DNA of 64,000 bases from a virus (Duplodnaviria > Caudoviricetes). The stretch spans positions 113,487 through 177,486 of the IMG/VR virus record IMGVR_UViG_2873737359_000001; one strand, written 5' to 3'. A program made the translations under genes and the position numbers. The notes under the pieces are model-generated. The model searched no databases, was not told the DNA's origin, and saw only the letters and a program-made list of their open reading frames with translations. Shown here in pieces: positions 6,847 through 32,612 of this stretch (the first letter of the stretch is position 1; each line of letters starts with the position of its first letter).

Positions 6847-6894
6847 TCATAAAATATATATTTTTTTAACGTTTTTTGTATACAGTATATTGTA

Positions 6895-6932
6895 TGTTCT
6901 TGCATATCTTTTTAGATGTGCAAGAACTTTTT
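6895..6932 (+). terminator. Intrinsic terminator after capsid gene
   Basis: GTTCTTGCATATCT / AGATGTGCAAGAAC stem followed by a T run. Confidence 0.7.
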
Positions 6933-6953
6933 GAATAAAAGGAGAATTTAATA

Positions 6954-7532: not shown

Positions 7533-7549
7533 TAGTTAGGAGGTATCAT

Positions 7550-8014: not shown

Positions 8015-8347
8015 ATGAAAACTATTTATGGTCATTTTGATGACAAACAATTTGAGAATTATAAGGTAAGGTTACATAAAGAATTATTTTGGTTACTTTT
8101 ATATAAAGATCCGAAAACAAAAGACGAATTTAATAACATTGATTTCGAAAAATATTTTATTAATTTGATGAAACGGATTGACGGATTAAATACACTTCTC
8201 TCCTATCCTGTTGAAATTATATCTATAATGTCAACTCTTCAGGCTGCTTTAAATGAAACACGAGAAGAAAATTTTGATTATCAATCTTACAGAAAATTAG
8301 TATTAGATGCACATTCGTTAGTAGATAAAATTAATGATAGGAGTTGA
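8015..8347 (+). CDS. Hypothetical phage protein
   Basis: Abuts both neighbouring genes (translational coupling). Confidence 0.65.
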   Translation: MKTIYGHFDDKQFENYKVRLHKELFWLLLYKDPKTKDEFNNIDFEKYFINLMKRIDGLNTLLSYPVEIISIMSTLQAALNETREENFDYQSYRKLVLDAHSLVDKINDRS

Positions 8348-8352
8348 TTTTA

Positions 8353-8868
8353 ATGATTACTGCCGACATGTACAGATCGCATCTTAATTCATATGGCAGT
8401 AATTTAGCACAGGTTAAACAAAGCCAATCTAATATGGTTGTAAATAGTGCCTTTACTGCGGATGCACAATATAAAAGAGTTTATATATTAACAAAAGATG
8501 GATGGAAATTCGAGGATGCAAAGTTTCAAAAGCACGCGAAATATTCTATTCTTAAAGATGCCGTTGATTATTACGTTCAGTTTCGCCCAAAAGTACATTA
8601 CTCTGTTGGTAGTTATCTTTTTATTCCGGACGATACTGCTCACGAAATTAATATTCACGGTAAAGACTTAGAACATCCATTATCGCTTCCAGAAGATCAA
8701 ATCACTCAATTGTGGTTTATAGTCGGTCGTGATTATGATCCATCTTTTGTTAGATATAATGTTTTGCAATGCAATTGGAAATTTAAATGGATATACAACA
8801 ATAAGTTATATACATGCTGGGGTGCGAATAGATCGGCCAACAGCTACACAAGCGGTAAATGGACAGAT
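8353..8868 (+). CDS. Putative head-closure/completion protein, exon 1
   Basis: AGGAG RBS then ATG 8353. Reads ...NSYTSGKWTD and then enters group I intron sequence. Junction uncertain by a few nt. Confidence 0.65.
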
Positions 8869-10385
8869 TTTGTATGGATTTTCTGTACATACATGGTCCG
8901 CTGTAAAGGGAAACCTTGACAGCGCATTCTTTCGGATATGCTGGAATTAGGCTGTACACATAGCCGTCCTAAAGCTTACTAAACTACAACATAATGATGG
9001 AATATGCATAAGTGTGAATGTCGCGAAAGCAGAAAAAATTAGTAAGATGGTATAAGCTGAAACAAAAGCTTTTATATAATAAAAGTGCTAAGTACTACTA
9101 CAATGGGAAATCAGCAGGGAATAGTTTAACTAGGCTTGCCCTCATCGACTATCGGTTGAAATACCGTTAGGGAGAAGTCTCCCGAAGTGAAAGACTCCTA
9201 AGTGCTTAATTGCATATGGTGAATGATATAGTCAGTGCTTACATGAAAGTGTAAGAAAAGTTGTTTATAAATTAATATTGAATATTAAGACCAGACAGCG
9301 GGTAGCTCCTGTTTTGTTATACCTCCTATATAACAATTATGGTCTTTTTATTATACATAAATTTAGGAGGAATTTTTATGTCAAAATTATCAGTACAAAA
9401 AATATTTGAAAAGCACGGAGACGAAATTATTAATCTTCGGAAAAATGGTATGCAGATGCAAGAAATTGGTGAAAAATTTAATTTGAAAACTCAAACTGTG
9501 AGCAGCTTTTTGCGAAGAAATAATATAAGAGTTCGCGGATTAAGGAATGAAGAAACAGAAAATAAGATAGTTCAATTATATAATGATGGAGTGTCTATGA
9601 GAGAAATTGCTTCAAATTTTCATTTTACACAAGGAACCGTCAGAGATATACTTGTTAATCATGATGTGCATATCAAAACTAATTCTGAATCACATAGGAT
9701 ATATGATATAAACGAAAATTATTTTAATCAAATAGATACGCCTAAAAAAGCTTATATTTTAGGATTACTATATGCAGACGGTAATAGAAGTAGCAGATCT
9801 AACACAATTTCAATTCGTCTTCAAGAAAGTGATAAAAACATTTTAGAAAATATTAAAAAAGAATTGAATGCAGAAGTGCCATTACGATTTATTGATTATT
9901 CTAATGATTCTAAAAGACAAAACCAGTTTCTACTAGCAATAAGTAATGAACAAATTGCAAAAGATTTATATAAATACGGCATTGTTCCAAGGAAAGAATT
10001 TAAATTAACCTTTCCTAATTGGTTAGATAATAATCTCCTATCTCACTTTATAAGAGGATATTTAGACGGTGATGGTTTTATTTCAAATAACCCGAAAGAA
10101 AAACGAGCCAATATTACCGGAACCGAAAATTTGTTACTTGGAATTAAAAATATTTTAGAAGAACAATTAAATATACATTTTAGTATATATTCACCTCATA
10201 ATAAAGATACTAATACTAGAACGTTAGCTGTAGCTGGAGGGAATCAAGTTAAAAAATTTTTGGACTACCTTTATAAAGATGCTGATTTATATATAGAAAG
10301 AAAATACGACAGATATTATAATATGTACTGTGCTTAATATAAACAATCCTTATTTAAAGTAACGAATTAAATAAGTAACATTCAG
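8869..10385 (+). ncRNA. Group I intron (IA2-like) with homing endonuclease in the P9 region
   Basis: P element ATATGCTGGAA (~8936), Q element AATCAGCAGG (~9109), P7 GACTAT 9147-9152 / ATAGTC 9228-9233, P7.1 and P7.2 hairpins, P9 GAAA hairpin. TTGTTTATA 9261-9269 / TATAAACAA 10338-10346 encloses the ORF. Ends in G at 10385. Confidence 0.85.
9378..10337 (+). CDS. LAGLIDADG homing endonuclease with N-terminal HTH repeats
   Basis: Motifs AYILGLLYADG and HFIRGYLDGDG; TAGGAGG RBS at 9364-9370. Confidence 0.9.
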   Translation: MSKLSVQKIFEKHGDEIINLRKNGMQMQEIGEKFNLKTQTVSSFLRRNNIRVRGLRNEETENKIVQLYNDGVSMREIASNFHFTQGTVRDILVNHDVHIKTNSESHRIYDINENYFNQIDTPKKAYILGLLYADGNRSSRSNTISIRLQESDKNILENIKKELNAEVPLRFIDYSNDSKRQNQFLLAISNEQIAKDLYKYGIVPRKEFKLTFPNWLDNNLLSHFIRGYLDGDGFISNNPKEKRANITGTENLLLGIKNILEEQLNIHFSIYSPHNKDTNTRTLAVAGGNQVKKFLDYLYKDADLYIERKYDRYYNMYCA

Positions 10386-11081
10386 GAATATTCATCTGCG
10401 CTTGACAATTTGACATCAGCGTGGATGCCAGACATTTATTATGCTTATGGTAATAACTTATACGAACTTGGATTAGATGATAATAGAACTGTGATGCATG
10501 AACAACGTTTCATGCTCTCAAATAATATTCTTGATCCTAAAGTATATCAGGTTACGAAAGTAACAGATCTTAATCCTTCTGGAGTAATAAAATACTCTAT
10601 TAAGCAGGATGAATTGGATAATAAACGGGATAATGTAGAATTACAAATATGTGATTATTATACGGACTCCGGTGATCAAAAAACTGAGACTATACAAAAG
10701 CCTCAAATGATGATTACGGAATCTCAAATCAGGTGGTTAACTCTTAATGATGATGGAGAATTAGAACCTATCTATGATAAATCTAAGCAATGTCTATATC
10801 TAGGAAAGAATTCTTATTTCGAATACAAACTCCCATATCAAGACTTAAAATCCGAATGGAATCTAAGTGTATATGATAGAAAAAACGAATTATCTGACGA
10901 AGACAAATCTTATTATGAAGGATTAATGAAAATAACAGTTATGGATAATGTAACTATTTCAATTAAGCCGGGAAAGGCTAATAGTCTTATTGGTAAAAGA
11001 TTTATTCTTTCAGCGACAGATAATAATGGCGATAACCACTCTTCTATCGTACTGGAGGTGGAAAAATGGTCAGAGACATAA
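10386..11081 (+). CDS. Putative head-closure/completion protein, exon 2
   Basis: In-frame continuation EYSSALDNLTSAWMP with no RBS of its own. Joined product ~403 aa. Confidence 0.65.
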   Translation, partial: EYSSALDNLTSAWMPDIYYAYGNNLYELGLDDNRTVMHEQRFMLSNNILDPKVYQVTKVTDLNPSGVIKYSIKQDELDNKRDNVELQICDYYTDSGDQKTETIQKPQMMITESQIRWLTLNDDGELEPIYDKSKQCLYLGKNSYFEYKLPYQDLKSEWNLSVYDRKNELSDEDKSYYEGLMKITVMDNVTISIKPGKANSLIGKRFILSATDNNGDNHSSIVLEVEKWSET

Positions 11082-16374: not shown

Positions 16375-19300
16375 ATGAGTGATATGAAATTAGGAGAGAT
16401 TAGTCTTGATCCTGTTGCTGAAGCAATTGTTAAAGGGGTCAATATGAAAGCAAATTCTAAGGCTAATAAAGAATTTCAAAAAACAATAGATCAAATAAAA
16501 GAAGGCACAGACATGCCTGTTAGATTTAACCCCAATACTTCCGAATTTGATAAAGCTAAAAAAGAAGCTGAGAAACCAATAAAGACTCCGGTTAAATTAG
16601 AGACAGAAAATGTTGATCTCCCGCTTCTAGGGAAAACTCCTGTAAAATTATCAATTGATAAAGATAGTCGAACTGCTATTAAAAAAACTTTAAAGGATGC
16701 AGAAAAAGCATCAAAAAGTTTAATTGATTCTGCGGCAAGAACTGTAAAAAAAATAGGTTCCGCAAATTATTTAGAAGAACTTACAAAAAATGAACGACAA
16801 GCAATTTCTACTGCAGTGTCTAAAGTAAAACGTAACCATCCTGAAATTTCAGATGATAGGTTAAAAACATTTGAGCAAAATCTTATATTAGATAGACGAG
16901 CAAAAAAAACACATGAAACATTATCAGAAAATTTCAAGCTTCCAGATTCTTCTTCTAAATCATATGGACAAGAGATGTATGAAGCTGCTATTGCAGCTGC
17001 AAAGATTCAGGCTGCTGTTAAAATCAGAGAAGATCTTCATAACGATGAAAGCTATACACAATTTTTATCAAAAAATGATAGAAGCAAAAGTTATAATGGC
17101 AACACTCTTAAGATACCAGGAAAATTTATAGATCAAATACAAACTGGTTTGTACGAACATTTAGGGGTTACAGAATTAGGCAATGCTCTTACTTCTGGAA
17201 ATAGCTGGACTGGAATACAAGATCGTATGGTACGATCAATTGATTCTTTTAGTGCAGGTTTAACAGATGTTATAGAAGCTTCTATTCCAAAGACTTCTTC
17301 TGGAGATCGTATCACTAAGAAATTTCAGAAAAGAATAGATTCTGCTGTTAAAATGGCTGTTGGTATGTCTGTAGATGATGCCATTAATTATTTAACAGGG
17401 AAAAGGGGCATTAAAGAAAATAAAGAGGCGTTATCTTTATTAGGAAAGAAAAAAAATGGAGAATATGAATATTCTGTTGATGATATACTTGGCATATTAT
17501 CAGAGAAGGCGCCAACAGGTGGATCTGAAAACGGTGGCACTAATTATAAAGGATTTAGTCAAATTTTAGGAGCCTTACAGGTATATAACAGAAACGGAGC
17601 GTCTGGATTAAGTGCAAATCGTATTGAACGATTATCAGAACTTGTTGATGTAATTACCTCTACTTATACAGGCAATGATGGTTTCGTTGATTATGATGCA
17701 AAAACCGTAATTAAGTCAATCGATACAGCATTAGATAAAGTTCAGGACGAAGCCGAAAAGGCGTCAAAAGAATCAAAAGAACAACCTAAAGTAGCGGAAA
17801 AACCTAAATCTAAAAAATCTAATGAGAAGTCCTCTTCTACAACTTCTAAAAAAGAATCTGCAAAGACTGAGACTAAAACGGTTGAAGAAAAAGAACCGGG
17901 AAAAATTGAAAAATCTAAAGAAGAATTTGTTTCTTCTACTCCAAATAAATCCCATCGTAAAGTAGTAAAACCTCCTAAAATCTTAAAGGGCAATTCTCAA
18001 GCCAGAGATGTGAATGGTAATTTATTATCTTGGGATGGACAAGATTGGAAAATAAAATCAAATTCAGAATCCGATTCTTTATGGGAAAATATACCAGAGA
18101 ATCCGTCTCCTGAATTTTTAAAAAGATTTGAAAGAGCTAAAAAATTTACCAAAAATCATCCTGAATTATTTGGTCCAGATGCTCTCCCTATAGAATTTGA
18201 TGAGGAAGCTTTTTTGAAAGATTTTTTGAAAACATTGAATGATGCTCCCCCTATAAAATTTGATGAGGAAGATTTTGGGAAAACAATGAATGATGGAGTA
18301 AGTGTTAAAGTTCCAGATGCATCCAAAGATATAAAAGATGGAGCAAAGCAAATAAAACAGGCGTCAGATACAATAGAAAAAACTTCCAAAACCGATCAAA
18401 AAATATCTGATGACAAGAAAGAATCTTCTGATTCTATAAAACCAAAAACTCATTCATCTTCACATTCGAAAAAAGGAAATAATCAACAAGATGACGATCA
18501 AGATCAAATAAATACTGGAAATGATGTAAAAAAAACAAAAAAAGAATTTACATCACAATATAAAGAAGCCATTTCTGATATTAAAGATCTAGGGAAAGCA
18601 TATGTTAATCTTCAAAATGCTATTTTAAATCCAACAGGTAAAACTTATAAAAAATCAAATGGAAAAATAGGATCTTCATATGAAGATTTTATTGATCAGC
18701 AATTATCTGATATTGAAAATAAGGAAAATCGAATTAGGTCATTTAACAAAAATGTTCATAATCAAAATAAGACAAATCCTTCTCAAATTAAGGATCAGAA
18801 TATTTTTGATAGTTATGAGAAAGAATTGCAAGATAGTCAGTTACAGCAAAGTCAATTTGATGATAATCTAGTTAGTCTTATGAGATCTGCATACGAAGTT
18901 CGTAATAATGCTCAAAATGAAATACTTAAAACGATTGGCAGTCCTACACGAAAAGGAGAAATTAATTTAGAAAAATTTGCAAAGCAGCAAGAACGCTTTG
19001 CTAAAAGTGATTATGTGTACAATTTGCTTAGTGATAAAGTAAGCAAACGTAAAGGAAATGCATATCAAGAATCTGCCATATCTGATATTGCGGAATCTTC
19101 AAAAACAGATAGAGAGTCTATTTTACAAACGAATTTTGGTACGTTGTCTCAACAAATCAATGATTATGTATCATCTATTGAAAGAGCTGGACGCGCAAGC
19201 GAACAATTCAAATCAGATTTTGGAAAAATACAATCTGATTTGAATAAAAATGATCCTTCTCAATTTAAAGATACTGAATCAGGTATGAAAGAATATCTTG

Positions 19301-21153
19301 ACTTTATGACAGATATTCGCAGTCGTTTTAACAGCAATAAAGATTTTTATGAAAATGGCATCGGAAAATCTACTTTAGATTATGAAGCTATCAAAAATAA
19401 ATTAATTAAAGCAGAAAACTATAATACTAAAACAAATGAGTATAAATCAAAAGTTTTTGGTTTTCAAGAACAATGGGATGGTATTATAGATAGTTACAGT
19501 TCCGGAGATATAGAGAAAATGAAAGAAGCGGAACATGCCGCCACTTCTCTTATATCCACAATGAACGACTTTTATAAAGAATCATCTAAAAGTGATAAAT
19601 ATAAAAAGACAACGTCGAAAGGTACTTTAGTAGAAGACACTGTAGGTAAGGTTCAAGATATTAATGATGCAAAACAATCATTAAAACAATTTACCGATGA
19701 AATGAAATTAACTAATAAGGTGTCAGAAACCATTGATACATCAACAGGTAAGATCACACAAAAATTCAAAGATGATTATTCTGGAAATATAATTACTATC
19801 ACAAGTAATATTGACGAACTTAACAATGCTCTTAGAACAACTCAAAAAATTCAATCATCCGGTTCAGGTGGTTCAGGCGGCTCTCTTCTGGGAGGATTAA
19901 AAAATCTCGTATCCGGCAACTTTAAATCAATTGTTGGTGAAATAGGAAGTAGCGTAGCTAATGTTCAAATTCTTGGCCAAGCTTTCCAGCAAATGAAAGA
20001 TGGATTTAATACATTCCTTGATTTCAATAAAGGATTAACTAATATCAGTTATACCATGGATATGAGCAAAGAACAGCTCTCATCTCTCGGATCATCTGCT
20101 GTTGATATGGCCAAAGATCTTTCTATGTCCTTGGATAATACCATGGATATCTATCAGATCTATGCAAATATGAATACTACACCTAAGGAAATCCAGGAAA
20201 CAGCGAAGCCTACTGCTATTCTGAGTAACTTAAGTGGTGTAGATGCTTCTACCGCCGCCGATCAGGTACAGGGTATTCTTCAGCAGTTCCATATGCTTGA
20301 AGATGGCTCTACTACTGCTGCCGATGCTTCCATGCACGTAGTTGATGTATTGGATAAGATTTCCGGAAATATCGGTATGGATTATGCTAAGGGAATCAAG
20401 GTTATTTCTGATGCGGTACAGGCTTCCGGTCAGGTAGCATTTGATGCTGGAATGAGCTACGAGCAGTTAGCTGCTGTATCTGCTAAAGTAGCTGAAAGAA
20501 CTCGTGAAGATGGATCTTCTATTGGTAATGCAATGAAGACTATCATAACGAGAATCAGTAAAGTTGGATCTATGCCAGAATATGCTGCAGATGTAAGTAA
20601 TGAAGATCTTTCCCAGGCTTCAGAGTCTTTACATAAAGTTGGTGTAGAAGTCTATAACACAGATGGATCATTCCGTGATCTTGATACAATCCTTTCAGAA
20701 CTTAATTCTAAATGGGACGGATTGACAGACGCTCAAAAAGCAAATATTTCATACAATGTTGCAGCCACGAGGCAAACTTCAAAATTCAAGAATATACTTG
20801 AAGCTTGGACAGATTCTATGAATTTGGCAAACGAGGCCACTACAACCAGTGGTAATGCCGAAGCCAATCAGGAAAAATATATGGAATCTTTCTCCGGAAA
20901 GATCCAGGCAATAAAAACTCAGATGGATGAGTTTTGGTTAAACTTCTATAATTCAGACCAGGTATCTGGAGCTTTAGATTTTGTACAAGGTTTAACCGAA
21001 GGATTTACAGGGCTTGAAGAAGCCATTGGTCCAATTCCTACTCTAATCACGGCTGTATTCTCAGCATTGACCGTAAAAAATGCAGCAACAAAAGGATTAG
21101 ACTTTTTAGTAGGGAAAGATGGACAAGCAAGTGGACTTGCAAATGCCGTGGGT
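16375..21153 (+). CDS. Tail tape measure protein, exon 1 (contains TP901-family core)
   Basis: Core motifs such as GSSIGNAMKTIITRI and DGSFRDLDTILSELNSKW. Ends at the predicted 5' splice site GGU; the ORF-track stop TGA is the first intron codon. Confidence 0.88.
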
Positions 21154-21615
21154 TGACCCAAATTCGGGGTTACAGTTATTATTTCCGATTAATAATGAGC
21201 CTATCTACATAAAGATCGTGAGATCAATGTGTGGAGACGAGCGGCAATAAATAACTAGAGGATTAAAACGTTGAAACCTGCTATTCTATAATATAGTGAA
21301 TCGGGCGAAAGCCTGCAGGTAACGCACGTGCCAACCTGGTTAACGTCTAGTAATATGTGAAACATTAGTAACAATTGCGGAAGCAATGATGAGGGAAGCA
21401 TATGAATAATCAGGAAGTGTAGAGAGCGCACCCTTCCTCGGAGTATATACAAAATCCATATATGTATATGCTTTTAATGAATGTGCCTATAGTAATGATG
21501 GTGAAATCCATCCAGTACTCTTCTACTGTTATTTTAAATGAAGAAAAATATTTTTAGGAAGTGCCCCTATAAAAGAGGCACTGTTATTAAAGGTTTTATC
21601 CTTTAATCCTCGGGC

Positions 21616-21637
21616 AAAAAAAATGGTCCCCGACCGT
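21616..21637 (-). terminator. Terminator of the minus-strand cargo gene
   Basis: On the minus strand, ACGGTC-GGG-GACCAT followed by a T run. Confidence 0.5.
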
Positions 21638-21638
21638 C

Positions 21639-21839
21639 TCACTTGCCGCCCGATGCAACGCTTGCAAAGTCACAATTAAAATTAGCCGAGATCTCATTTA
21701 TGCTAACTTTAATATAGAAACTTAAAGCTTCTGGATTATGTTTGAGTATCATCCAGATAGCTGCAAGAATCAATATTGAAATTATAGCTAATATAATTAT
21801 TGACCCTACAAGCTTAATTCGTTTTGAATTATTGTCCAT
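21639..21839 (-). CDS. Small single-TM membrane protein (intron cargo)
   Basis: GGAGGTG RBS, hydrophobic segment LVGSIIILAIISILILAAIWMIL, own terminator right after the stop. Confidence 0.65.
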   Translation of the reverse strand: MDNNSKRIKLVGSIIILAIISILILAAIWMILKHNPEALSFYIKVSINEISANFNCDFASVASGGK

Positions 21840-22070
21840 ATTTCACCTCCTGTCTGCAGTGTTTATGGCACTGCCATAGGAGACAAATTGACTCTAACCA
21901 AAACGTCAGAATCATGATGACTTCTGATAATTTACCACCTACACTTTTCTGAAGGTATTATGTAAGAAATATATAGTGCACTTATATATTCTACACATGG
22001 TAAATTATACCAATTATATTCGAAATGTATAGTCAGAACGTTTGATCTGGTTAATATAAAAGTGCATCAC

Positions 22071-22110
22071 AAATAGAGCAGGACGATTGATCCTGCTCTA
22101 TTCTATTTTT
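22071..22110. terminator. Strong hairpin inside the intron
   Basis: AATAGAGCAGGA / TCCTGCTCTATT 12-bp stem followed by a T-rich tail. Confidence 0.55.
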
Positions 22111-22138
22111 CTCCAATATCCTCCAAAGGAGATTTCAC

Positions 22139-22321
22139 ATGAAAAAGTTATATAAATCTAATCTAAAATTTAATCTTAACATACTATGTAAGATAATTAA
22201 GTTTGAACTGAAAATAATTACAAAGCATAAACGACTCGCAGAAAAGTGGTTTGAAAAGATCACAACACTAGAATGTGAGTCTATATTTGAGAAAATGGAC
22301 GAGCGGAAGAAATATCTATAA
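22139..22321 (+). CDS. Small basic hypothetical protein (intron cargo)
   Basis: AAGGAG RBS before ATG. Confidence 0.45.
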   Translation: MKKLYKSNLKFNLNILCKIIKFELKIITKHKRLAEKWFEKITTLECESIFEKMDERKKYL

Positions 22322-22399
22322 TTTGCGCCACTTCTCTTTGTCTATTACTTCTTCCCGATTCTTCTATTTTCCTCTTCTACCTGAAAGGACTAAATACCC

Positions 22400-22645
22400 A
22401 TGAACAAATTTCAACGAATTTTACAACATTATGGACAAATCAAAAATTCTACTACTGGACCGTATACAAAACCTTACGAGTTCAGAAATATGACTGATTA
22501 CGAATGGTACAAAAAATGTTGTTCTGATATATCACAAAACTATGGGATACTGCTCAACCAAAATCAATCATATTTAAGCTATTGGTTTCATAGGAAAAAG
22601 GCAGATGTAAAATTGTTATTGTCTATTGTTGTTTCCTCCATTTAG
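22400..22645 (+). CDS. Hypothetical protein (intron cargo)
   Basis: GAAAGGA RBS. Confidence 0.45.
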   Translation: MNKFQRILQHYGQIKNSTTGPYTKPYEFRNMTDYEWYKKCCSDISQNYGILLNQNQSYLSYWFHRKKADVKLLLSIVVSSI

Positions 22646-22662
22646 AAAGGTGGCGATCCATT

Positions 22663-22896
22663 ATGCAGACAAACCACAAGGTTCTTTCTACTGTTATAGA
22701 TATTACACAGTTACTTTGCAAAAATTCTTGTACATATGATGAAGCGTATAAAATATTAAATATGGTTACTGCCGAATTTAAACAGCAGCAAGAAAATTTA
22801 GAATACGCAACATACGATGACTATTTTGCAGGTACAAAAACTGATGATGTAAGTAATAAAGTCATTGCACCATTAAATCATGCGGGTGGTTATTGA
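22663..22896 (+). CDS. Hypothetical protein (intron cargo)
   Basis: GAAAGGTGG RBS. Confidence 0.55.
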   Translation: MQTNHKVLSTVIDITQLLCKNSCTYDEAYKILNMVTAEFKQQQENLEYATYDDYFAGTKTDDVSNKVIAPLNHAGGY

Positions 22897-22898
22897 TC

Positions 22899-23468
22899 TT
22901 ACTTACTTCCTGGTTTCCAACGATATCCGCACTTCTGACAAAGATTATGCTTTTTGCTAGATCCCCAAAATCCTGTTAAAAGTGAATATCCGGATTCTTC
23001 CGTTGTCACTGACGTTGATCCGCACTTTGGACAGCGAACGGTTTTGGACGGATCTGGAATATCGGCAGTGTTGAATTCGAAGTATTGGAAGTTGTGGTCG
23101 ATACAGGTTGTAATGAATTTGTAGGCAAGATGAGCTGTATTATTTTGTGCATACCAATTAAAACGTTCTCGAATAAGCCGAGTTATTTTAGTAGTAACAG
23201 ATAGATATTTTTGCTGTCCTTCAGGGCAATTAACATTGTCAAAATTTTTAGGGTTATTAAAGCGTTGAAAATTTTCTTTATAGAATCCTTTTTGAGCTTC
23301 GTTCGATAATGAATTATATAACTCTTTAAAATGTGTTAAATCGTATTCTACTCCATCGACCAAACAAATATTTTCTTTATGAATATTGCTCAAAGGGAAA
23401 CCACAGTGTATACAAGCTGGAGCTTTATCAGAGACATTACCGCCACATTCAGGACATTTAATTAACAT
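22899..23468 (-). CDS. Double zinc-ribbon protein (intron cargo)
   Basis: N-terminal CPECG...CIHCG and C-terminal CPKCGS...CQKCG motifs; GGAGGG RBS. Confidence 0.8.
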
Positions 23469-23493
23469 ACCTTTATCCCTCCATTTTCTTTTA

Positions 23494-23522
23494 ATTTTAT
23501 CATACTATAGTCATTAAGTAAA
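23494..23522 (-). promoter_or_regulatory. Putative sigmaA promoter for the zinc-ribbon gene, straddling the 3' splice site
   Basis: Minus strand TTTACT-N17-TAAAAT with an extended -10 TG. Confidence 0.5.
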
Positions 23523-26500
23523 ATCGGAAATCTAAAAAAAGCGATAAATTCAAAAGATACGGATACGGTGAAAAGTGTTCTTAGCGGAATGGATCTTGAT
23601 ACTGCTGGTAAATGGTTTGGACGTTTAAATCAGGAAAATGGAAAAACTATAATTTCTGAAGATATTTTTTCAGATATATTTTCACAATTATTTGGTGAAT
23701 TAGGCGAAGACACTATCAAAAAAGCCATTGCTAAAGGCACTGCTTCAAAAGGTTTCAAAGGTGCACTCTCTGCTGGTATTAGCGGTTTTGCTGGTGGATT
23801 AGCTGGTATTGGAGAAAGTATTGGTACTGTAGGTACAGGATTAGTATCATTTCTGGGTTCTATCTGGCCTTTATTAGCAGTTGGTGGAGGAATTTTTGCA
23901 GGTATTAAAGGATACCAGGCATTAAACGATAAATTCACTCTTACTAAAGGAATGGCGGACAAACATTATTCTCAGTCCACACAGGAATATGCAAATAACC
24001 AGTCCGAACTGGAATCCTTGCAGTCTCAGAGAGATACCAACCAAGAGCGTATTTACGAACTCCGGGCCAAAGAAAATCAGTCTCCTGACGAAAAAGCAGA
24101 ATTGAGTCAACTTCAGGAAGAAAATAATCTTCTTGATTCTCAGGTAGCTATAAAAGAAAAGTCTGTGGACGTATCTAAGCTAAAGGCAGCCAATGATGCC
24201 AAAACGAAACTTGAGAAAAAAGGATACCAGAAGAACTATAAAAAGGAAGCTTACGATAATCAAGATAAAACTTCAATCAATGATTTAGATGAAGCTTCTG
24301 AAATGATTGATTATTTAAATCAGCTTAAATCTGAGTACAAAGATCGTGTTCAGAAAATTGCGGATGAAGGTAGAGAACCAAGTTGGATTGAACAGAAAGG
24401 TTTGGATAGCACAAAGAAAAAGATTGACAGTTTGGAATCAGATGTTGCTGATAAGGTAACAGAAATCTCTGACACCGCTAAAAGCATGAAGAACGATGAT
24501 GGATCTCTTATTGATGAGAAATTCAAAGATACTGTTGCTTCTGCTGATGCTGTTGTACAGAAATATCTGAACTCTACAGACTCTACCACAGCCACTTCCG
24601 ATAAGATGAATAACATCTTTGCACTCTCTCAATTCTCAGATCTGAAGGATAAACTCATTGCCGCAGGTAAATCCGGTGGTACAGATGCTATCCAGAAAAT
24701 GATTGATGACACAGACGGTCTTAAAGATGCAATGAATAATGCCGGACTCACTGCGGATGATCTCAAGGATAGTATTATGTCTATAGCAGATCCTGACGCG
24801 AAGAATCTGGAAGGCATCAAGGAGAATCTTGAGGACATATTCGGTAAGGATGGTCTTGGACAGTCTGATTTCTTCAAAGGTAAAACGGATGAAGAGCTTG
24901 AGAACTTCTGGGATTATCTCCAGGACAACAACTATAATCCTAAGCAGATGAACTGGAATGAGGAAACCACTAAGAAAAACTTCGAGGCAGCACAGGAAGC
25001 TAAGAAGAAAACTCCAGAGGAATCTGCCACATTCGCTTCTAAATTCAAGAATGCAGCAGAAGATACTGCTACTGACATTGATACTGTAACAGATAACTTC
25101 CAATCTGACATGAAGAATATCCAGTCTGCTATGGAGTCCGTAACAAACGGTACATTCCAGAATTCTGATATGGCAGATCTGATCCAGCAGTTCCCGGAAT
25201 TAAGTAATGCCAGTGGTGATTTGAAGGATAATCTTCAGGATCTTGCCATGAATAAAGGGGCTGAGGCCATTGGTAAGATCAGGGATTCTGTAAAGGATGT
25301 TACGGACCCGAAGCAGTTAGCACAGGCGGATAAATATGTTCAGAGTATCATGGATACGATGGACATGAGCGATTTTGATGTAAATGAGGCAGACGTTAAA
25401 GACATTGCTACAAAAAACATCAAAAAAAATGCAGATAAGTGGGTTAATAGAGATAACGCATCAAAAAAAGTATCTGAGTTAATGGAAAAATATTCTGGCA
25501 ACGAAGATGCTATGAAGGCCATTGTTCAACTTTCTATGGATCCTTCTATGGCTGATGCCAGTATAGAAGAATGGGAATCTAAGATTGAAGATCAAGAAAT
25601 TCAGATAAAGATTAATGCTGATACCAAAGAATTAGATAACCTTTCTAAATCAATGACCCGTCTTCAGACAGACGCTTCTAATACTCAGACAGATATGAGT
25701 AATAAGTCTGCTTTCAACCAGAAAATAAATAAAGATGATTACGATGCTTTAATTAAAAATGGCGATGCTCAAATTAAGAACTATGACGAGCAAATCGCAC
25801 ATTATAAAAATTTACAGAAAATACTAAAAGAAAACAATATTGATGCAGAGAGCACTGAGCAATGGAAACAATGGCAGGATAATATTGATGCAGCACAGCA
25901 GTCTATAGAGAATATGAAGGCTTCTCAGGCTGAATGGGGCGATGCGATTAAGAATCTTCCTATTACAGATATAACAAATCTGTCAAGTGCTATCACTACT
26001 GCTATGAGCGAAATGCAGAGTGATACCGGATTAACCACAGATAGTGTAAAAAATCTGGCTACACAGTTTAGTGATCTCGGTGATATTAACATTGATAGCT
26101 TATATACTAGAACTGCAAAAGGTTTACAGCTTAATACCGATCGTCTCCAGGATTATATGGAGCAACAGAATGATTTTGTCAATTCTGATTTTGAGAACAA
26201 AGTTAAGGAGCAAAAGCAGATTGTTGAGGATGCTTTTAAAGCATATCAGAATGGGGATCAATCACTCGCAAATTATACTGCAGAGCAGAATGCTCTCGAT
26301 GAATTATTAAATCGTAGAAATCAATATTTCGCACGGTATCAAGAGGCTCAGGAGCAATTTACTGATTTCCAGAAGATGATCAATGCCGAAAACGCAGCTA
26401 ATGCTGGCGACGAATATACCACAGCTAAATCAAAACTCGATGAATTAAAAGAGTTATATGACAACAATCTTATTGGAACTGAAAAGTTTAAAAAAGGTGC

Positions 26501-29500
26501 TGCTTATTTCTCACAAAACGGATTTGAAGATCCAGAAAACTTCATTGAAAATTATAATCATCTCAAAAAGTATTACACCGATGATTCTTCCGGTCCACAG
26601 AAATTCTTAGAGGATTTAAATAAGAAAGGTCTCGCTACATATGAGACTCTTGCAAATGGTCAAAAGCAATGGGCTTATTCATTTAATGATGTCAAAGACG
26701 CTGCTGATCAGATGGGAATGAGATATGAATCATTCCAGTCTATATTAGGAAGACTTTCTGATTATGGTTTTGTGAATAATCTTGTTACTTCTACTCAGGA
26801 TGGAGAACAACAAATTGACGAGCTGACAGATGACCTTATTACAGAGAAAAATAAGCTGTCAAAACTGAAAGCAAATGGAGCCACAGATCAGGCTATTCAG
26901 GATCAGGAAAATGTTGTTGATCAACTTGAATCTAAAATTAGTGGTGTAAATCAGGCAGTAACAGATTATGCTAATGGTGAAACAGACAGAAAAGTTCAGG
27001 ATTTAAAAGAAGCAAAGCAGATTATCAAGGATTCAAAAGAAGCCTATGATGAGGCAATGAAATCTGGCGATACGGATCTCGCTCAGAAACTTCGTAAAAA
27101 TATCCAGGATACTGCTAAAGATAATAACATAGAGTTGACTCCGGAACTAAATATTGATGAGAAAGCTCTTGATAAGCAAATTGACAACTTACAAAGTGAA
27201 GCTCGCGAAAAGAGTGTACAGAAATATAAGGATATCCAGGATCAGCTCCATAATGGACAAACAGAATGGACAGATTCTGAAGATTTCAATGCAGCGGATG
27301 CTATTACCAAATTAGAACAGGCTCAATCAGAAAACGCAGAAGGATTTAATAATCTTGTATCTAATATGAAGAAATATAATCTTTCTGACTTGGAATCTAT
27401 GATTTTTGATAATGGTGCATATGAATCTGAAGATCAAGGTCTTCGCGATATGGAAGATCAGATTCAGGGCTTTGCTGAATCTATAGGACTTACTACCGAT
27501 CAAGCTAATATGCTCGTTCCTATTCTTGAGGCAATGGGTACTTTAGATATATCTCCTAAAGTTGATAATTCAGAGCTTGAAAAGACCGTGACAGATACTC
27601 AGACTGCAGAGCAGACTCTTGAAGAAACAACAGGAAAACAATATAATTTTGATTTTAACACAACAGACCTGGATACTATTCAGAAACAGGTTGATCAAGT
27701 TAAAAAGGATATCGAGGACACTTATCTTAAGCGAGATGAGAACGGCAATGTCATTAGAGACGAAAACGGTATCCCTACTTATGATTATAGTGCTCCTGGT
27801 GCAAAAGAAACAGCTCAGATTTATGATGCTTCTATTAAACAACAGCAACAGGCAGAATATCAAACCTCAGCTTTAGGCCAATCAACATCTTCTGATGAAG
27901 TAGTAAAAGCCGCCCAAGATTATATGACAGCTAAGAATGCAATGGATGTGGAAACACAGAAATATAATCTTGGTATGGAGAACAAGTTACGAGAAGCAAC
28001 GGATAATGCTACCAATGCTATGAATGCATATGCTGAAGTTGCAGATAAAAATGGCAATCCATTAGAAACTGACTTAAAAAATATTGATCCACAAAAACTT
28101 GAAGATCAATTGTTAGGAGTAACTGATAAGGATCTTAAAGTAAAAGTCGAAGCAGATACATCCGATGCAGAAAATGATATTCAAAGTCTTGAAAATCTCG
28201 AAGGAAGTTCTATTACTATCAATGCAGACGTTTCTACAAATGGTGGTGTTGAAGAATTACAAGATTCTCTTGCTTCTATTCCTCAAGGAGTATCTACTAC
28301 TGTGACATGTGATGTAGAAGGCGAGTCTGATGTAGATAATTTGGAGTCTTCTATGGAGTCTATCCCGGATAATACTCCTGTTACAATCGATTGTCACGTT
28401 GAAAATCAAGATCAACTTGATCAGATTAACCAAAAGGCAGACGAACTTAATGCCAATGGAAAACAAATAAAAATCAACGCTACTGTTGGAGAAGTAAAAA
28501 CTGATGGAGCAACTTCTAATACGCCTATAAATGTAAAAGGCAATGTCACAGAAGTTTCAGGAAACCCCTCTGGCACTGTAGATATAAAAGGCAACGTCAC
28601 TAAAATCTCAGGAAACCCTTCAGGTACAGTCGACGTCAAGGGTAATGTTACATCTGTTACAGGTAATCCATCAGGAACAGTAAATGTCAAGGGAAACATC
28701 ACAGGTATAACAAACGAAGATGCAGTAAAAGGTAAGGCTAATTATACAGTAGGACATTCACCAAAGAAAGTTCCTGATGCAAGCGGAAAAGCTAATTTTG
28801 GCCTTGGAAAACATCCCGAAAAAGCCCCTGATATTTGGGGTACAGCTCATTATACTGGGGATTTCCCAACATCAGCTCCCACCCTTTCTGGTACTGTAGT
28901 ATATCACGCACAAATTCTAGGAGCACCTTCTGGCGCAAAATCAGTTGCAACAGGTACAATGCTCTCTCCTGCTCATGCTTCAGGTACGGCTTATAATGTT
29001 TTAAATATGAAGCGACTCTCTCCTGCTCATGCCGGAGGAAATGTTGCTATCAAACATAATGAACAAGCTCTTGTAAATGAAGTAGGTACAGAATCTATTG
29101 TTCGTAATGGTGTATGGTCACTTCTTCCAGGCGGAGCACATCTTGAGAATTTAAAACAGGGAGACATTGTATTCTCTGCTTCTCAGACAAAAGATCTTCT
29201 TGAACATGGACGTACAGCTGGACATGCACGTGCTTATGCAGAAGGCACTGCTTCTCTCACACATGCTTATGCTCGTTCTTCTGCTGCTAATGGCGGTGGA
29301 GCTTTTGGCGGAGTTAGAACAAGAACTACCACTTCAAACCAGTCATCTAGTTCTAATAATTCAAATAATAATAATGCACTTCAAACAATCGCAGATAATA
29401 CAGATTCAATTGCGGGAAGTTCACAGCAAACAGCAGACAACACTTCGAATTGGGAAGATCCATGGAAGAATGCAGTAGACTGGTTCGAACGGTATAGCAC

Positions 29501-32500
29501 CAGAATAGATAATAAGTTGGATCTAAATAGTGCTATTTCTGATAATTATCAAGGAAATAAATCTAATAAGAAAAATCCATTTAGTATTGCTACAAAAAAT
29601 AGCACTTTAGATTATTCTATTGATACAATCAAAAAAGAAATTCCAAATTATCAAAAACAACGGGATTATTATGCTTGGCAAGCTGAGGCTTATGGAGATA
29701 AAATTGGTCTTTCTCAGGATCTACGTAAATTAGTTCAGGAAGGTAAAATCCAGGATATCGAAATTTACGATGAAGATACAAAATCTAAAATTGAAGCATA
29801 TCAGACATGGTACGATAAAGTTCATAGTGTTGAATCTTCTATTGAGGATCTAAAATCTAAAGAAGCGGATCTTTGGAACCAAAAATTCAGTAATATTACT
29901 GACCGTTATGATGCATTAAAAGGTATTTACTCAGGAAAGAATGATATTCTTAGTGCAACAAATGATTATCGAAAAGAAACAGGACAATCTGAATCTTATA
30001 AATCGGTATACGCAAATAATATTAGAGCGCAAAGAACAAATCAAATCAAGCAGAATGCTATTACTGCTGAGGAAATCAAAAAATATCAGGCAGAGTTAAG
30101 AAGTCTTGGAAAAGAATATGGCACTCAGTCTACTATTTATAAGGAAGCGCAGTCTACTCTTCTTGATCTAAATAAGGAATATCAAGAAGGGAAAACAGCT
30201 GTAAGAAATTTCACAAACCAGCTTAATGAGTTAAAATTAAAAGATCTTCAAAATGTAATTGATAGATATGATAACGCTTCTGATAAACAATCTTCTTATC
30301 GCGACTGGAAAGATGCTACACATTTCAAAGGAACATCCGGTGTTACACAGAATGATTTACTAGAGGGCATTAAAACTAATGACAAACTTATTGATGCCAT
30401 ATCTGCTAGAAGGGATGAGGTTCAGCGTCAAATGCTTGGACTTTCCACGAGTTCTGATGATTATCGAACATTGGCAGACGAGCTTGCACAATTAGACGAA
30501 AGGACTGCAAACATTGCTAAAAACAATGCAGAATTACGTCAGCAAGCAACTCAGTTACGTACAGACCAATATGATAAAGCAATAGACAAACTTGAGCGTA
30601 TCACAACTGACTGTGAAAATATTCAGAGTATGATGGATTCAGACACATTTTTATCTGATGACGGATCTCTTACTACAAATGGTCTTACTAATATTGCTTT
30701 AGAAAATCAGTCTATACAGACTAATCAGAAAAAAATTGCCACATTAAAGCAGGAATTAGCAGAAGTTCAACAAATGTATGACAATCATTGGATGACCGAG
30801 GAACAATTCTTATCTCAGAGCCAACAGATTATTTCTGATATTAATTCTGCGGCGAAAGATATTTCTTCAAGCCAACAAAATTTAATCGATACATATATTA
30901 ATCAGATTACAAAAGAGAACGAATATTTACAAGACAATATCTCTAAACGTAAAGAAGCTCTTGAGGCCAAAAAGGATTATTATGATTATGATAAGACTAT
31001 TAAGAATAAGACAAAAGATATCAATGTAATCAAAGCACAGATTGCTGCTCTTGAGGGAACAACAAACGCCGTTGCGAAGGCAAAATTAGAGCAACTTAAA
31101 GCAGACCTTGTAGATAAGCAAGAAGATCTCGAAGATACCAAGTATGACCATAAGATTGATATGGAATCTAAAGGCTATGATAATCTTGCAGATCAGGCAG
31201 ATAAGGCTTTGGATTCTACTACACAGGCAGTTAAAACCAATGCCGATATGCAAAAATCTGTTATCGATAATATGCTTAAGGAAGTACAAGGCAATTACAA
31301 GGATGTATATGATAATATTACAAACATTGTAAAAGATTCTGGTGCTCAAATATCTAAAGAATTTGATAGCATTCTTAAAAATATTGGAAACGGCAAAGGT
31401 AATTTTACTGTTACTGTTACAAGTAAAGCTAAATCTTCTGTAGGGAAAACAAAAATTTCTAATGCTCCTGGAGTTACTGGACGAGGAAAGACTTCCGGAG
31501 ATAAGAAAGTAAGACGAACTGCTAAAGACGGAAGCTCTGCAAATAACGCTGCCGATGAAAATGGTACAGATCGACAGGCAACACAAGCTGTTACTGCTAC
31601 TCCGAAATCTATATCTATAGGTGTTGGAAATAGCGCGACTGTGAAAATTGGATTTAAGCCGACAAATGCTACCTATAAAGATTTTACATACGAAGTTTCA
31701 AAAAAAGGAATTGTTTCAATTTCTAAAGGTAAATCTTCTATTACTGTAAAAGGCACGGCGGTTGGCAGTGTAAAAATTACTATCAAAGGTCATGGCGCAG
31801 GATGTAAATCTACGACTGTTTCTGTAAAAGTCTTAAAAGATGGAGCCAAACATACAACAATTGCAAAAAACGTAGCAAAATCTATGAGAACATCATTAGA
31901 CACCAATGATGTTACTAAGATTCTAAATGCTACAAGCGGTAAAAAAACGGTAAAAGAAGTTGAATCATACGTAAAACAATATGTTATTCAAAATAAAAAT
32001 AATAATGTAACAAAAACTGCATTATCTAAGTGGTTTAAAGCTCTTCCAGCTTTTAAAGGTGATGTTTCAAAAGTTACTGGTATCGTTACAAAGCATTTAG
32101 CCCAAAAAGGCAAAAAAGCTACCGTTGCTGATATTCAAAAGGCTGCATCTATTCTTGGATATAAGGATTATAAAAATGTGGCCAAATGGAGTACTACTCA
32201 GAAAAACGCACTCGTATCTAAATTAAAAGGATATGGATTTGCTAATGGTGGAATCATTCGTAATCTGATTCCTGCTAATATGAGTACATTATTTGGTGAT
32301 GCTATTATGAAAAATGGCGATACAGGTCTTATATCTGCTCGACAGGGAGAAACTGTATTAACAGAGAAGTTCACAAATATGCTCGAACCAACTGTGACTG
32401 CTATGAACGCATTTACAGATATGTACCAGAAAATGAGCGCTCCTAATGTAAGTAGTGTTCCAACTCAGCAACAAAATATATTCCAGCCAGAGTATAATAT

Positions 32501-32612
32501 TAATATTACTGGAATGGATCTAAGCAAGGCTACTGAACTGAAAAAGGTTATTCGAGGGGAACTCAATAATCATGATAAAGCACTTGCAAAAGAATTTAAA
32601 AAGTTCAGTTAA
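23511..32612 (+). CDS. Tail tape measure protein, exon 2
   Basis: Frame is open from 23511 (SLSKIGNLKK...) with no convincing RBS before the ORF-track start GTG 23568. Gly/Ala-rich hydrophobic segment, long coiled coils, ALVNEVGTE and GFANGG motifs typical of TMP C-terminal halves. Confidence 0.88.
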   Translation, partial: SLSKIGNLKKAINSKDTDTVKSVLSGMDLDTAGKWFGRLNQENGKTIISEDIFSDIFSQLFGELGEDTIKKAIAKGTASKGFKGALSAGISGFAGGLAGIGESIGTVGTGLVSFLGSIWPLLAVGGGIFAGIKGYQALNDKFTLTKGMADKHYSQSTQEYANNQSELESLQSQRDTNQERIYELRAKENQSPDEKAELSQLQEENNLLDSQVAIKEKSVDVSKLKAANDAKTKLEKKGYQKNYKKEAYDNQDKTSINDLDEASEMIDYLNQLKSEYKDRVQKIADEGREPSWIEQKGLDSTKKKIDSLESDVADKVTEISDTAKSMKNDDGSLIDEKFKDTVASADAVVQKYLNSTDSTTATSDKMNNIFALSQFSDLKDKLIAAGKSGGTDAIQKMIDDTDGLKDAMNNAGLTADDLKDSIMSIADPDAKNLEGIKENLEDIFGKDGLGQSDFFKGKTDEELENFWDYLQDNNYNPKQMNWNEETTKKNFEAAQEAKKKTPEESATFASKFKNAAEDTATDIDTVTDNFQSDMKNIQSAMESVTNGTFQNSDMADLIQQFPELSNASGDLKDNLQDLAMNKGAEAIGKIRDSVKDVTDPKQLAQADKYVQSIMDTMDMSDFDVNEADVKDIATKNIKKNADKWVNRDNASKKVSELMEKYSGNEDAMKAIVQLSMDPSMADASIEEWESKIEDQEIQIKINADTKELDNLSKSMTRLQTDASNTQTDMSNKSAFNQKINKDDYDALIKNGDAQIKNYDEQIAHYKNLQKILKENNIDAESTEQWKQWQDNIDAAQQSIENMKASQAEWGDAIKNLPITDITNLSSAITTAMSEMQSDTGLTTDSVKNLATQFSDLGDINIDSLYTRTAKGLQLNTDRLQDYMEQQNDFVNSDFENKVKEQKQIVEDAFKAYQNGDQSLANYTAEQNALDELLNRRNQYFARYQEAQEQFTDFQKMINAENAANAGDEYTTAKSKLDELKELYDNNLIGTEKFKKGAAYFSQNGFEDPENFIENYNHLKKYYTDDSSGPQKFLEDLNKKGLATYETLANGQKQWAYSFNDVKDAADQMGMRYESFQSILGRLSDYGFVNNLVTSTQDGEQQIDELTDDLITEKNKLSKLKANGATDQAIQDQENVVDQLESKISGVNQAVTDYANGETDRKVQDLKEAKQIIKDSKEAYDEAMKSGDTDLAQKLRKNIQDTAKDNNIELTPELNIDEKALDKQIDNLQSEAREKSVQKYKDIQDQLHNGQTEWTDSEDFNAADAITKLEQAQSENAEGFNNLVSNMKKYNLSDLESMIFDNGAYESEDQGLRDMEDQIQGFAESIGLTTDQANMLVPILEAMGTLDISPKVDNSELEKTVTDTQTAEQTLEETTGKQYNFDFNTTDLDTIQKQVDQVKKDIEDTYLKRDENGNVIRDENGIPTYDYSAPGAKETAQIYDASIKQQQQAEYQTSALGQSTSSDEVVKAAQDYMTAKNAMDVETQKYNLGMENKLREATDNATNAMNAYAEVADKNGNPLETDLKNIDPQKLEDQLLGVTDKDLKVKVEADTSDAENDIQSLENLEGSSITINADVSTNGGVEELQDSLASIPQGVSTTVTCDVEGESDVDNLESSMESIPDNTPVTIDCHVENQDQLDQINQKADELNANGKQIKINATVGEVKTDGATSNTPINVKGNVTEVSGNPSGTVDIKGNVTKISGNPSGTVDVKGNVTSVTGNPSGTVNVKGNITGITNEDAVKGKANYTVGHSPKKVPDASGKANFGLGKHPEKAPDIWGTAHYTGDFPTSAPTLSGTVVYHAQILGAPSGAKSVATGTMLSPAHASGTAYNVLNMKRLSPAHAGGNVAIKHNEQALVNEVGTESIVRNGVWSLLPGGAHLENLKQGDIVFSASQTKDLLEHGRTAGHARAYAEGTASLTHAYARSSAANGGGAFGGVRTRTTTSNQSSSSNNSNNNNALQTIADNTDSIAGSSQQTADNTSNWEDPWKNAVDWFERYSTRIDNKLDLNSAISDNYQGNKSNKKNPFSIATKNSTLDYSIDTIKKEIPNYQKQRDYYAWQAEAYGDKIGLSQDLRKLVQEGKIQDIEIYDEDTKSKIEAYQTWYDKVHSVESSIEDLKSKEADLWNQKFSNITDRYDALKGIYSGKNDILSATNDYRKETGQSESYKSVYANNIRAQRTNQIKQNAITAEEIKKYQAELRSLGKEYGTQSTIYKEAQSTLLDLNKEYQEGKTAVRNFTNQLNELKLKDLQNVIDRYDNASDKQSSYRDWKDATHFKGTSGVTQNDLLEGIKTNDKLIDAISARRDEVQRQMLGLSTSSDDYRTLADELAQLDERTANIAKNNAELRQQATQLRTDQYDKAIDKLERITTDCENIQSMMDSDTFLSDDGSLTTNGLTNIALENQSIQTNQKKIATLKQELAEVQQMYDNHWMTEEQFLSQSQQIISDINSAAKDISSSQQNLIDTYINQITKENEYLQDNISKRKEALEAKKDYYDYDKTIKNKTKDINVIKAQIAALEGTTNAVAKAKLEQLKADLVDKQEDLEDTKYDHKIDMESKGYDNLADQADKALDSTTQAVKTNADMQKSVIDNMLKEVQGNYKDVYDNITNIVKDSGAQISKEFDSILKNIGNGKGNFTVTVTSKAKSSVGKTKISNAPGVTGRGKTSGDKKVRRTAKDGSSANNAADENGTDRQATQAVTATPKSISIGVGNSATVKIGFKPTNATYKDFTYEVSKKGIVSISKGKSSITVKGTAVGSVKITIKGHGAGCKSTTVSVKVLKDGAKHTTIAKNVAKSMRTSLDTNDVTKILNATSGKKTVKEVESYVKQYVIQNKNNNVTKTALSKWFKALPAFKGDVSKVTGIVTKHLAQKGKKATVADIQKAASILGYKDYKNVAKWSTTQKNALVSKLKGYGFANGGIIRNLIPANMSTLFGDAIMKNGDTGLISARQGETVLTEKFTNMLEPTVTAMNAFTDMYQKMSAPNVSSVPTQQQNIFQPEYNINITGMDLSKATELKKVIRGELNNHDKALAKEFKKFS
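28533..28706 (+). repeat. 51-bp (17-aa) tandem repeat in the TMP, ~3.5 copies
   Basis: VKGNVTEVSGNPSGTVD-type units start at 28533, 28584, 28635 and 28686. Confidence 0.85.

Follow-up and report, generated by a model that had tools for sequence, protein, structure and literature searches.

We analyzed a 64,000-nucleotide stretch of tailed-phage DNA (hereafter the window; IMG/VR record IMGVR_UViG_2873737359_000001, positions 113,487 to 177,486) in which the gene for the tail tape-measure protein is split by what appears to be a group I intron with genes of its own. The reading that we consider probable is that this intron is vertically inherited and harbors genes on the opposite strand, and that one of them, encoding a double zinc-ribbon protein, has its own promoter at the 3′ splice site. 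The window corresponds to positions 400997–464996 of contig 1 of a 3.7-Mb bacterial assembly, and its gene content is a series of phage structural genes on the + strand.

Two giant open reading frames (ORFs), at 16375–21156 and 23568–32612, lie on either side of a 2.36-kb stretch with five small ORFs on both strands. The first stops within a tape-measure core of PF10145 type, its frame closing at an in-frame TGA (21154–21156) within the intron. In uninterrupted homologs of 3000–5000 amino acids (aa), the core is followed by a linker and then by a glycine-rich hydrophobic segment and a coiled coil. Because the second ORF supplies exactly this continuation of the core, we identify both giant ORFs, from their sequences, as one tape-measure gene. 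Joining position 21153 to 23511 preserves the reading frame (…AVG↓SLSKIG…, the arrow marking the junction here and below), and the intron-less exon junction reads …GTGGGT↓TCATTAAG…. The start of exon 2 is kept in relatives as TCATTA[AG]GTAAAATCGG. The gene is thus laid out as follows:

16375–21153, + strand: tape-measure gene exon 1, an ORF of 1593 codons with the PF10145-type core common to the uninterrupted homologs
21154–23510, + strand: predicted group I intron, 2357 nucleotides (nt), supported by the same insertion point in ~45 related contigs, by covariation, and by P10, P9.0 and omega-G
23511–32612, + strand: tape-measure gene exon 2, frame open from 23511

The spliced tape-measure protein (16375–32612) is predicted to have ~4600 aa, and those of relatives reach ~5000 aa. 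At the usual 0.15 nm per residue, this length would give a tail of several hundred nm, unless a large part of the protein does not act as a ruler.

A protein-guided scan of IMG/VR yielded 46 related loci, and in ~45 of them the gene is interrupted at the same codon, …GT(A/G)GGT↓T(G/A)ACCC. The inserts are 1.6–3.6 kb long. Their 5′ 335–376 nt are 77–80% identical to the window, the middle differs, and the 3′ end is conserved again, …(A/U)(U/A)G↓TCATTA(A/G)GTAAAATCGG. These related copies share ancestry, and the shuffle statistics given below overstate their independence.

We derived a fold from an alignment (A1) of 35 distinct intron 5′ parts. The helices follow the canonical order P1-P2-P3-P4-P5-P6-P7-P3′-P8-P7′-P9, with a P3/P7 pseudoknot, and 95.0% of the cells are standard pairs. 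Both sides have changed in 27 of the 98 pairs, compared with 10.2±2.2 in shuffles (0 of 500 shuffles reached this number), and a slid control in which partners were moved by 1–3 columns gave only 2–4 such compensatory pairs. The compensatory changes are located in P2, P4, P5, P5a, P5b, P6b, P6c, P7, P8 and P9, and one P7 position reads C-G, U-A and A-U across the alignment. The elements of the fold are:

21144–21545, + strand: ribozyme 5′ part, P1 to P9a, from pairing and covariation in A1; its further helices are P1a, P2, P4, P5(a,b), P6(a-c), P8, P9 and P9a
21148–53/21199–204, + strand: P1, 6 bp, with U21153·G21199
21258–62/21435–39, + strand: P3, invariant
21424,26–30/21482–87, + strand: P7, with bulged A21425
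21193–21204, + strand: internal guide, kept in all relatives
23503–23516, + strand: P9.0′ UACUAUA (23503–09), omega-G (23510) and the exon side of P10, UCAUUA (23511–16), from an independently derived fold

Both exon ends pair with the internal guide: GCCUAU (21199–204) with the exon 1 end GUGGGU, forming P1, and UAAUGA (21193–98) with UCAUUA of exon 2, forming P10, which has 5–6 bp in all relatives. The U21153·G21199 pair is invariant in the 35 sequences, and the pair adjoining it switches from A-U to G·U. P9.0, formed by 21488–94 and 23503–09 (7 bp in the window), covaries across clades (UAUAGUA/UACUAUA, AUGAG/CUCAU, ACUGU/ACAGU), and the terminal G (G23510) is invariant among relatives. Besides P1, a further exon-intron helix joins exon 1 positions −10 to −7 (21144–47) to 21243–46, downstream of P2; it has two compensatory positions, one of them tied to an Ala/Val codon change. 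From these sequence features we regard the insert as a real group I intron of the tape-measure gene, with splice sites at 21153/21154 and 23510/23511.

A covariance model of the ribozyme core (R1) scores the window's copy at 236.8 bits, this copy being among the sequences from which R1 was built. Folding 21130–21560 as a single sequence gave no useful signal (+ strand z −1.17, − strand z −0.48). The P9a loop CUCUUC (21518–21523) is complementary to GAAGA(G) ~20 nt downstream (21540–21544), and a clade with a wholly different P9 region retains an equivalent loop-to-downstream match, UCUCUU/AAGAGA; a pseudoknot between the loop and the downstream stretch is possible.

The zinc-ribbon gene and the promoter-like sites lie on the opposite strand:

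22899–23468, − strand: double zinc-ribbon protein gene, 189 aa, cluster c2, present in 39/39 distinct introns; Shine-Dalgarno sequence (SD) GGAGGG (23482–23477) 8 nt before the start at 23468
23494–23522, − strand: promoter candidate, with −35 TTTACT (23522–17, in exon 2), 17 bp, and TGa-TAAAAT (23502–23494, in the intron); start predicted at ~23487
22004–22031, − strand: second promoter-like site, TATACA-16-TGnTATAAT, upstream of the membrane-protein gene, from a motif scan

The 17-bp spacer of the promoter candidate (23500–23516) holds P9.0′ (23503–23509), omega-G (23510) and the exon side of P10 (23511–23516). We applied a joint test, in which a −10 element matching at least 5/6 positions had to lie 16–18 bp from a −35 element matching at least 4/6 on or beside the splice junction. 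This test was passed by each of the 15 distinct 3′ tails, which fall into 12 groups with less than 70% ungapped identity between them, and composition-preserving shuffles of the tails gave a mean of 0.144 per tail (range 0.07–0.24). Outside the window's clade, all but one distinct tail read …TAATGA↓CA… on the minus strand, so that the first four bases of exon 2 and the last two of the intron make up a −35 ATGACA (5/6). The spacer in relatives is 17 bp (16 or 18 in two tails), with a sequence that is unrelated between tails. Their −10 is TATAAT, TACAAT or TATATT, often TGn-extended, and an SD and ATG follow 20–35 nt on.

The window and two relatives (L028, L029) end in …UAUAG, which gives ATGACT and spoils the −35 at the junction; they have instead TTTACT-17-TGaTAAAAT, 8 bp farther into exon 2. 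This promoter is identical in all three, and both relatives retain a second TATAAT that is lost from the window. In another locus (L041), the test picks TTTACT-17-TATTAT, and a stronger ATGACA-17-TGnTACAAT is also there. Distant zinc-ribbon homologs, intron-borne and free-standing alike, have near-consensus promoters such as TTGACA-17-TATAAT. We conclude from the sequences that the zinc-ribbon gene family travels with a host-type promoter, which in the intron is pressed onto the splice junction. The initial annotation had placed the − strand motif where we find it, with P9.0, the terminal G and P10 as its spacer, and had proposed that the promoter overlaps the splice site. The equivalent junction-spanning promoters in relatives bear this out: the case for a conserved sigma-70-type promoter of the cargo overlapping the 3′ splice site is convincing because of its conservation across distinct tails, not because of the motif alone. 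A pairing of the + strand AUUAUA (the complement of the −10) with a 5′ GUUAU stretch was rejected, since it is true of one clade only.

The protein read from this promoter candidate has two CxxC…CxxC zinc ribbons (Pfam Zn_ribbon_3, E 8.5e-8) and ranges from 180 to 201 aa across the 39 distinct introns in which we compared the cargo. It matches phrog_2546, whose function is unannotated, and belongs to a family of >268 clusters that are essentially unnamed and mostly viral; the only matches from the ESM Atlas were unnamed clusters of viral zinc-ribbon proteins. In an AlphaFold2 model (pLDDT 81, pTM 0.61), an N-terminal ribbon is followed by four helices and a C-terminal ribbon. With this model, Foldseek gave no match at E≤0.001, and the best VIA-align hit (Z 5.2, to a type IV-A CRISPR subunit over 69 residues) is within noise. 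The likeness in fold is confined to the ribbons, which resemble those of TFIIS, Rpb9 or NrdR.

The remaining cargo of the intron consists of four ORFs and a hairpin:

21639–21839, − strand: small membrane-protein gene, 66 aa with one transmembrane helix, cluster c3, in 38/39 distinct introns; SD GGAGGTG 4 nt before the start at 21839
22072–22102, + strand: 12-bp hairpin with a T run behind it, resembling a + strand terminator, at a module boundary
22139–22321, + strand: 60-aa ORF; SD AAGGAG 7 nt before the start; one homolog cluster (63% identity, E 4.7e-10)
22400–22645, + strand: 81-aa ORF; weak SD AAAGGA; three homolog clusters, 68–89% identical by alignment, with residues 1–76 conserved
22663–22896, + strand: 77-aa ORF; SD AAGGTGG 9 nt before the start; cluster c14, in eight distinct introns including the window

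All five cargo ORFs show some sign of coding. The membrane-protein family (~65 aa) has conserved HNP and C[DE]FAS motifs in its alignment. Most substitutions listed in metagenome contigs affect third codon positions in the three + strand ORFs, among them 3/3 listed differences in the 60-aa ORF in sequencing run X1. This 60-aa ORF is gone from variants in runs X2 and X20, near-identical metagenome contigs without 22102–22362 or 22108–22367, and both deletions begin directly after the hairpin at 22072–22102. No minus-strand terminator was found behind the zinc-ribbon gene, though the same hairpin could act both ways. The end of the 77-aa ORF adjoins the zinc-ribbon gene in every intron map checked. 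The two genes run toward each other, their stop codons separated by 2 nt (22896–22901) with no terminator, and the pair occurs in eight distinct introns; their mRNAs would overlap if both were transcribed.

Across the 39 distinct introns, the architecture has two constant ends, the zinc-ribbon gene at the 3′ end (39/39) and the membrane gene just behind the ribozyme (38/39), with a variable set of genes between them. The variable middle includes a 271-aa unknown (in most introns, not in the window), DUF6173, DUF2513, a 425-aa unknown and small ORFs. In the commonest layout (e.g. L016), every conserved, non-overlapping gene lies on the minus strand. Searches of Pfam, PHROGs, PADLOC and NCBIfam with the cargo ORFs of the window and its relatives gave no match to an endonuclease, maturase or defence family; the sole such match, in PADLOC at 0.006, is confined to a zinc ribbon. 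Most of what the initial annotation had said of the cargo is borne out by these data: five ORFs are present in both orientations, all with SD motifs, and they are a membrane peptide, three small unknowns and a double zinc-ribbon protein, none of them recognizable as a LAGLIDADG, GIY-YIG or HNH nuclease in the four libraries or, for the zinc-ribbon protein, by two fold searches. The survey of related phages that it had suggested showed that the contents are not identical.

Searches beyond IMG/VR returned little. Neither blastn nor tblastn against GenBank phages gave a match for the locus or the zinc-ribbon protein, and a DNA search of 200 genomes in the host's family gave only short matches to the zinc-ribbon N-terminus. 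The sole match in a set of species-representative genomes (L012, CAKVIN010000034.1) is a contig binned in an uncultured 'Candidatus Melainabacteria' metagenome-assembled genome, and it is probably a mis-binned phage contig. Many relatives (L028–L053, ~6520–8130), including L028 and L029, which are 99% identical to the window, have a further insertion of ~1.6 kb in the tape-measure core, at residue 171–173 of a 300-aa query (e.g. L031:6884–8125, L028:7003–8151). It encodes a sense-strand ORF of 380–413 aa without a Pfam family. The window lacks this insertion; therefore, intron presence or absence is polymorphic within the tape-measure gene. A second interruption in the window, at 8920–10410 between ORFs 8344–8919 and 10410–11081, holds a 332-aa LAGLIDADG_3 protein with helix-turn-helix domains (9339–10337, Pfam E 6e-13). 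Rfam does not match this insert, and R1 does not match it either, so we assign it to an intron type different from that of the tape-measure gene.

The zinc-ribbon gene and the membrane gene are the fixed parts of the cargo, and the slot between them differs in content among related phages. In the mechanism that we propose, the host RNA polymerase holoenzyme would start at ~23487, ~7 nt past the −10, and transcribe the zinc-ribbon gene leftwards, and the second site at 22031–22004 may drive the membrane-protein gene. Such a promoter would fire without phage late factors, so that the cassette would be active in the lysogen or at an early stage of infection; late in infection, polymerases reading the tail operon head-on in the sense direction would run into the cassette promoters, block them and switch the cassette off. 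The antisense placement of the cargo would also spare the ribozyme from ribosomes. Our best guess for the proteins is a nucleic-acid- or protein-binding regulator and a membrane factor that benefit the lysogen. It had also been suggested that the antisense RNA dampens tape-measure splicing. However, this RNA is predicted to start inside the intron, 16 nt inside of P9.0′, so that none of P9.0′, omega-G and P10 is complementary to it. It is thus unlikely to mask the splice site directly, and interference would be expected only through polymerase collision or duplex RNA inside the intron.

Several observations weigh against the reading that we prefer. The Rfam group I model (Intron_gpI) has no match at the gathering score or at E up to 10; the LAGLIDADG-bearing second insert is equally unmatched by it, and the model seems to be blind to these phage introns. 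The exon-exon joint was not seen in contig pieces of runs X1, X2, X3 and X20 (X20 being RNA by guess), which gave no information on strand or start either, and the DNA runs in which parts of the stretch occur are mostly pig-gut and wastewater metagenomes, with no RNA run listed. Lysogeny of the phage is plausible but something that we infer, and the nearest match to a tyrosine recombinase (PF00589) is ~52 kb upstream of the window. The region 21000–23700 holds 17 promoter-like sites, compared with 11.3±3.3 in shuffles, so the motif alone is not above background, and the window's promoter is the weakest of its family (−35 4/6, −10 TAAAAT). Finally, a zinc-ribbon gene that is never missing is as compatible with a function linked to the intron as with an accessory role.

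Could the zinc-ribbon protein be the intron's own factor, a new homing endonuclease, maturase or chaperone, with the other genes as later hitch-hikers? We consider this unlikely, though it is the likeliest of the alternatives. The zinc-ribbon gene is lastingly tied to the intron, being present in every copy and in distant, apparently minimal introns. Distant homologs (30–36% identity) are again antisense and head to head with a long ORF (>1100 codons), which in several distant loci matches exon 2; the tape-measure proteins there are only 25–30% identical. R1 finds a full ribozyme behind the zinc-ribbon gene in L073 (E 1.7e-30), L082 (2e-28) and L126 (1e-17), and a borderline full-length match in L105 (E 0.02). 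In L083 and L085 (E ~0.006), the P7-P8 part is found ~75 nt behind the zinc-ribbon stop codon, and L074–L080 show it there with weaker matches (E 0.3–0.9). These last loci (L074–L080, L083, L085) look like minimal introns with the zinc-ribbon gene as their only ORF, leaving no room for another. Free-standing homologs exist (L087–L089, L134), as in many homing-endonuclease families, and so do related tape-measure genes without the intron. Against such a factor, four hidden Markov model libraries and two fold searches gave no nuclease family or fold; the invariant residues are essentially the eight cysteines that would bind zinc, some glycines, E7, N175 and W184; and the helical middle is variable and in some members swapped out. 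An HNH-like reading of the C-terminal CxxC…N-L-C-x-x-C was rejected, because no histidine is conserved and the model lacks a beta-beta-alpha helix. The cargo has no homing endonuclease or maturase that is recognizable by known families and folds, and an intron-tied role of the zinc-ribbon protein is possible.

A second alternative is that the promoter-like hexamers are a side effect of the AT-richness of the intron tail and of the constraints on the splice site, and that the zinc-ribbon gene is transcribed from elsewhere or hardly at all. The site count and the 4/6 match of the window's −35 given above would agree with it, and ATGACA follows automatically from the conserved …UG↓UCAU junction. 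However, these constraints do not account for a −10 held at 16–18 bp, mostly 17, from the junction hexamer in the 12 diverged tail groups at a rate well beyond that of the shuffles, for the frequent TG extension, for the SD and ATG that follow, or for the same kind of promoter in homologs outside introns, and we find this alternative quite improbable. That the insert does not splice at all, the tape-measure gene being broken or made as two polypeptides, or the prophage being defective, is scarcely credible: the missing Rfam match, the lack of spliced RNA in the contigs inspected, a possible GTG start for exon 2 at 23568 and the sense-strand terminator-like hairpin within the insert are outweighed by the 27 covarying pairs in canonical P1-P9 order, by a guide that pairs with both exon ends together with a covarying P9.0, and by identical, precise boundaries in dozens of otherwise diverged phages in which both exons are under selection.

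How does such an intron, with opposite-strand genes and a promoter at its 3′ splice site, compare with known systems? The group I intron ORFs of phage T4 (I-TevI and others) have their own promoters and are expressed apart from the host gene; they are sense-strand GIY-YIG or HNH endonucleases looped from P6 or P9, with hairpins at the ribosome-binding site that restrain translation, and to our knowledge none has a junction-spanning antisense promoter. The present intron is like them in being a phage group I intron whose genes have their own, here predicted, promoters; we propose that it differs in keeping ribosomes off the ribozyme by antisense placement, where T4 uses the hairpins. A moron of a temperate phage is a gene with a promoter and a terminator, set between phage genes and expressed from the prophage. 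The comparison with a moron cassette, made in the initial annotation, is partly apt: the cargo has an autonomous promoter, judged by its sequence, its genes are unrelated to the surrounding late operon, and its middle slot turns over between relatives. It fails for the two end genes, which are constant, since sporadic presence among related phages is true of the middle genes only; moreover, the cassette is inside an intron inside a gene, and no clear terminator was found.

The closest relatives in setting are the group I introns TMP-IVS1/2/3 in tape-measure genes of Bacillus cereus-group prophages (PMC2504315). There too a group I intron splits a prophage tape-measure gene, and some Bacillus copies lack a complete homing endonuclease and are inherited with the phage. 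Those introns are of types IA1/IA2, with sense-strand endonuclease ORFs or remnants, whereas the present one is unmatched by the Rfam model, has P5a/P5b and a long P6 extension, and has a cargo of several, mostly antisense genes with its own predicted promoter. I-DirII, in the ribosomal DNA intron Dir.S956-2 of Didymium iridis, is an antisense intron ORF with its own promoter (PMC3073962), as predicted here. However, I-DirII is a eukaryotic homing endonuclease with an RNA polymerase II promoter, while the present intron is in a bacteriophage, has no recognizable endonuclease and further genes aboard, and its promoter overlaps the splice junction. In the account of Millard et al. 2010 cited in PMC5931967, cfrI is an antisense RNA at the psbA intron of cyanophage S-PM2, on the 3′ side of an intron-bearing phage gene as here, and is proposed to affect expression or splicing. 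As described in that citing passage, cfrI encodes no protein and connects psbA with the endonuclease gene next to it; in contrast, the antisense transcript predicted here would be an mRNA whose 5′ end is within the intron and which leaves the splice site uncovered. We found no report of a phage intron in which a gene other than an endonuclease gene is a conserved antisense partner, of a variable multi-gene antisense slot in a phage intron, or of a promoter that takes its −35 from the splice junction.

We also put forward, tentatively and as an unlikely proposal, that the zinc-ribbon gene is the obligate antisense partner of a widespread lineage of gut-phage group I introns and represents a new class of intron-associated proteins, which could be endonucleases, maturases, or regulators linking lysogeny to tail-gene expression. 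The promoter of the gene would then be joined to the splice junction in such a way that only intron-bearing DNA contains it, and the intron would also be a landing pad for further antisense genes.

Phage group I introns are usually seen as selfish ribozymes with a sense-strand homing endonuclease. Here an intron in an essential late gene holds a conserved antisense unit, predicted from sequence to be self-promoted, together with a variable gene slot, which would allow genes expressed early or in the lysogen to be lodged in a densely packed late operon while leaving the operon intact. A stretch of ~30 bp would serve as promoter, splice signal and coding sequence at once. The results also flag a protein family of >268 members as intron-linked, and they point to a large unannotated intron family missed by the Rfam model, so that split tape-measure genes in gut-phage annotations can be repaired.

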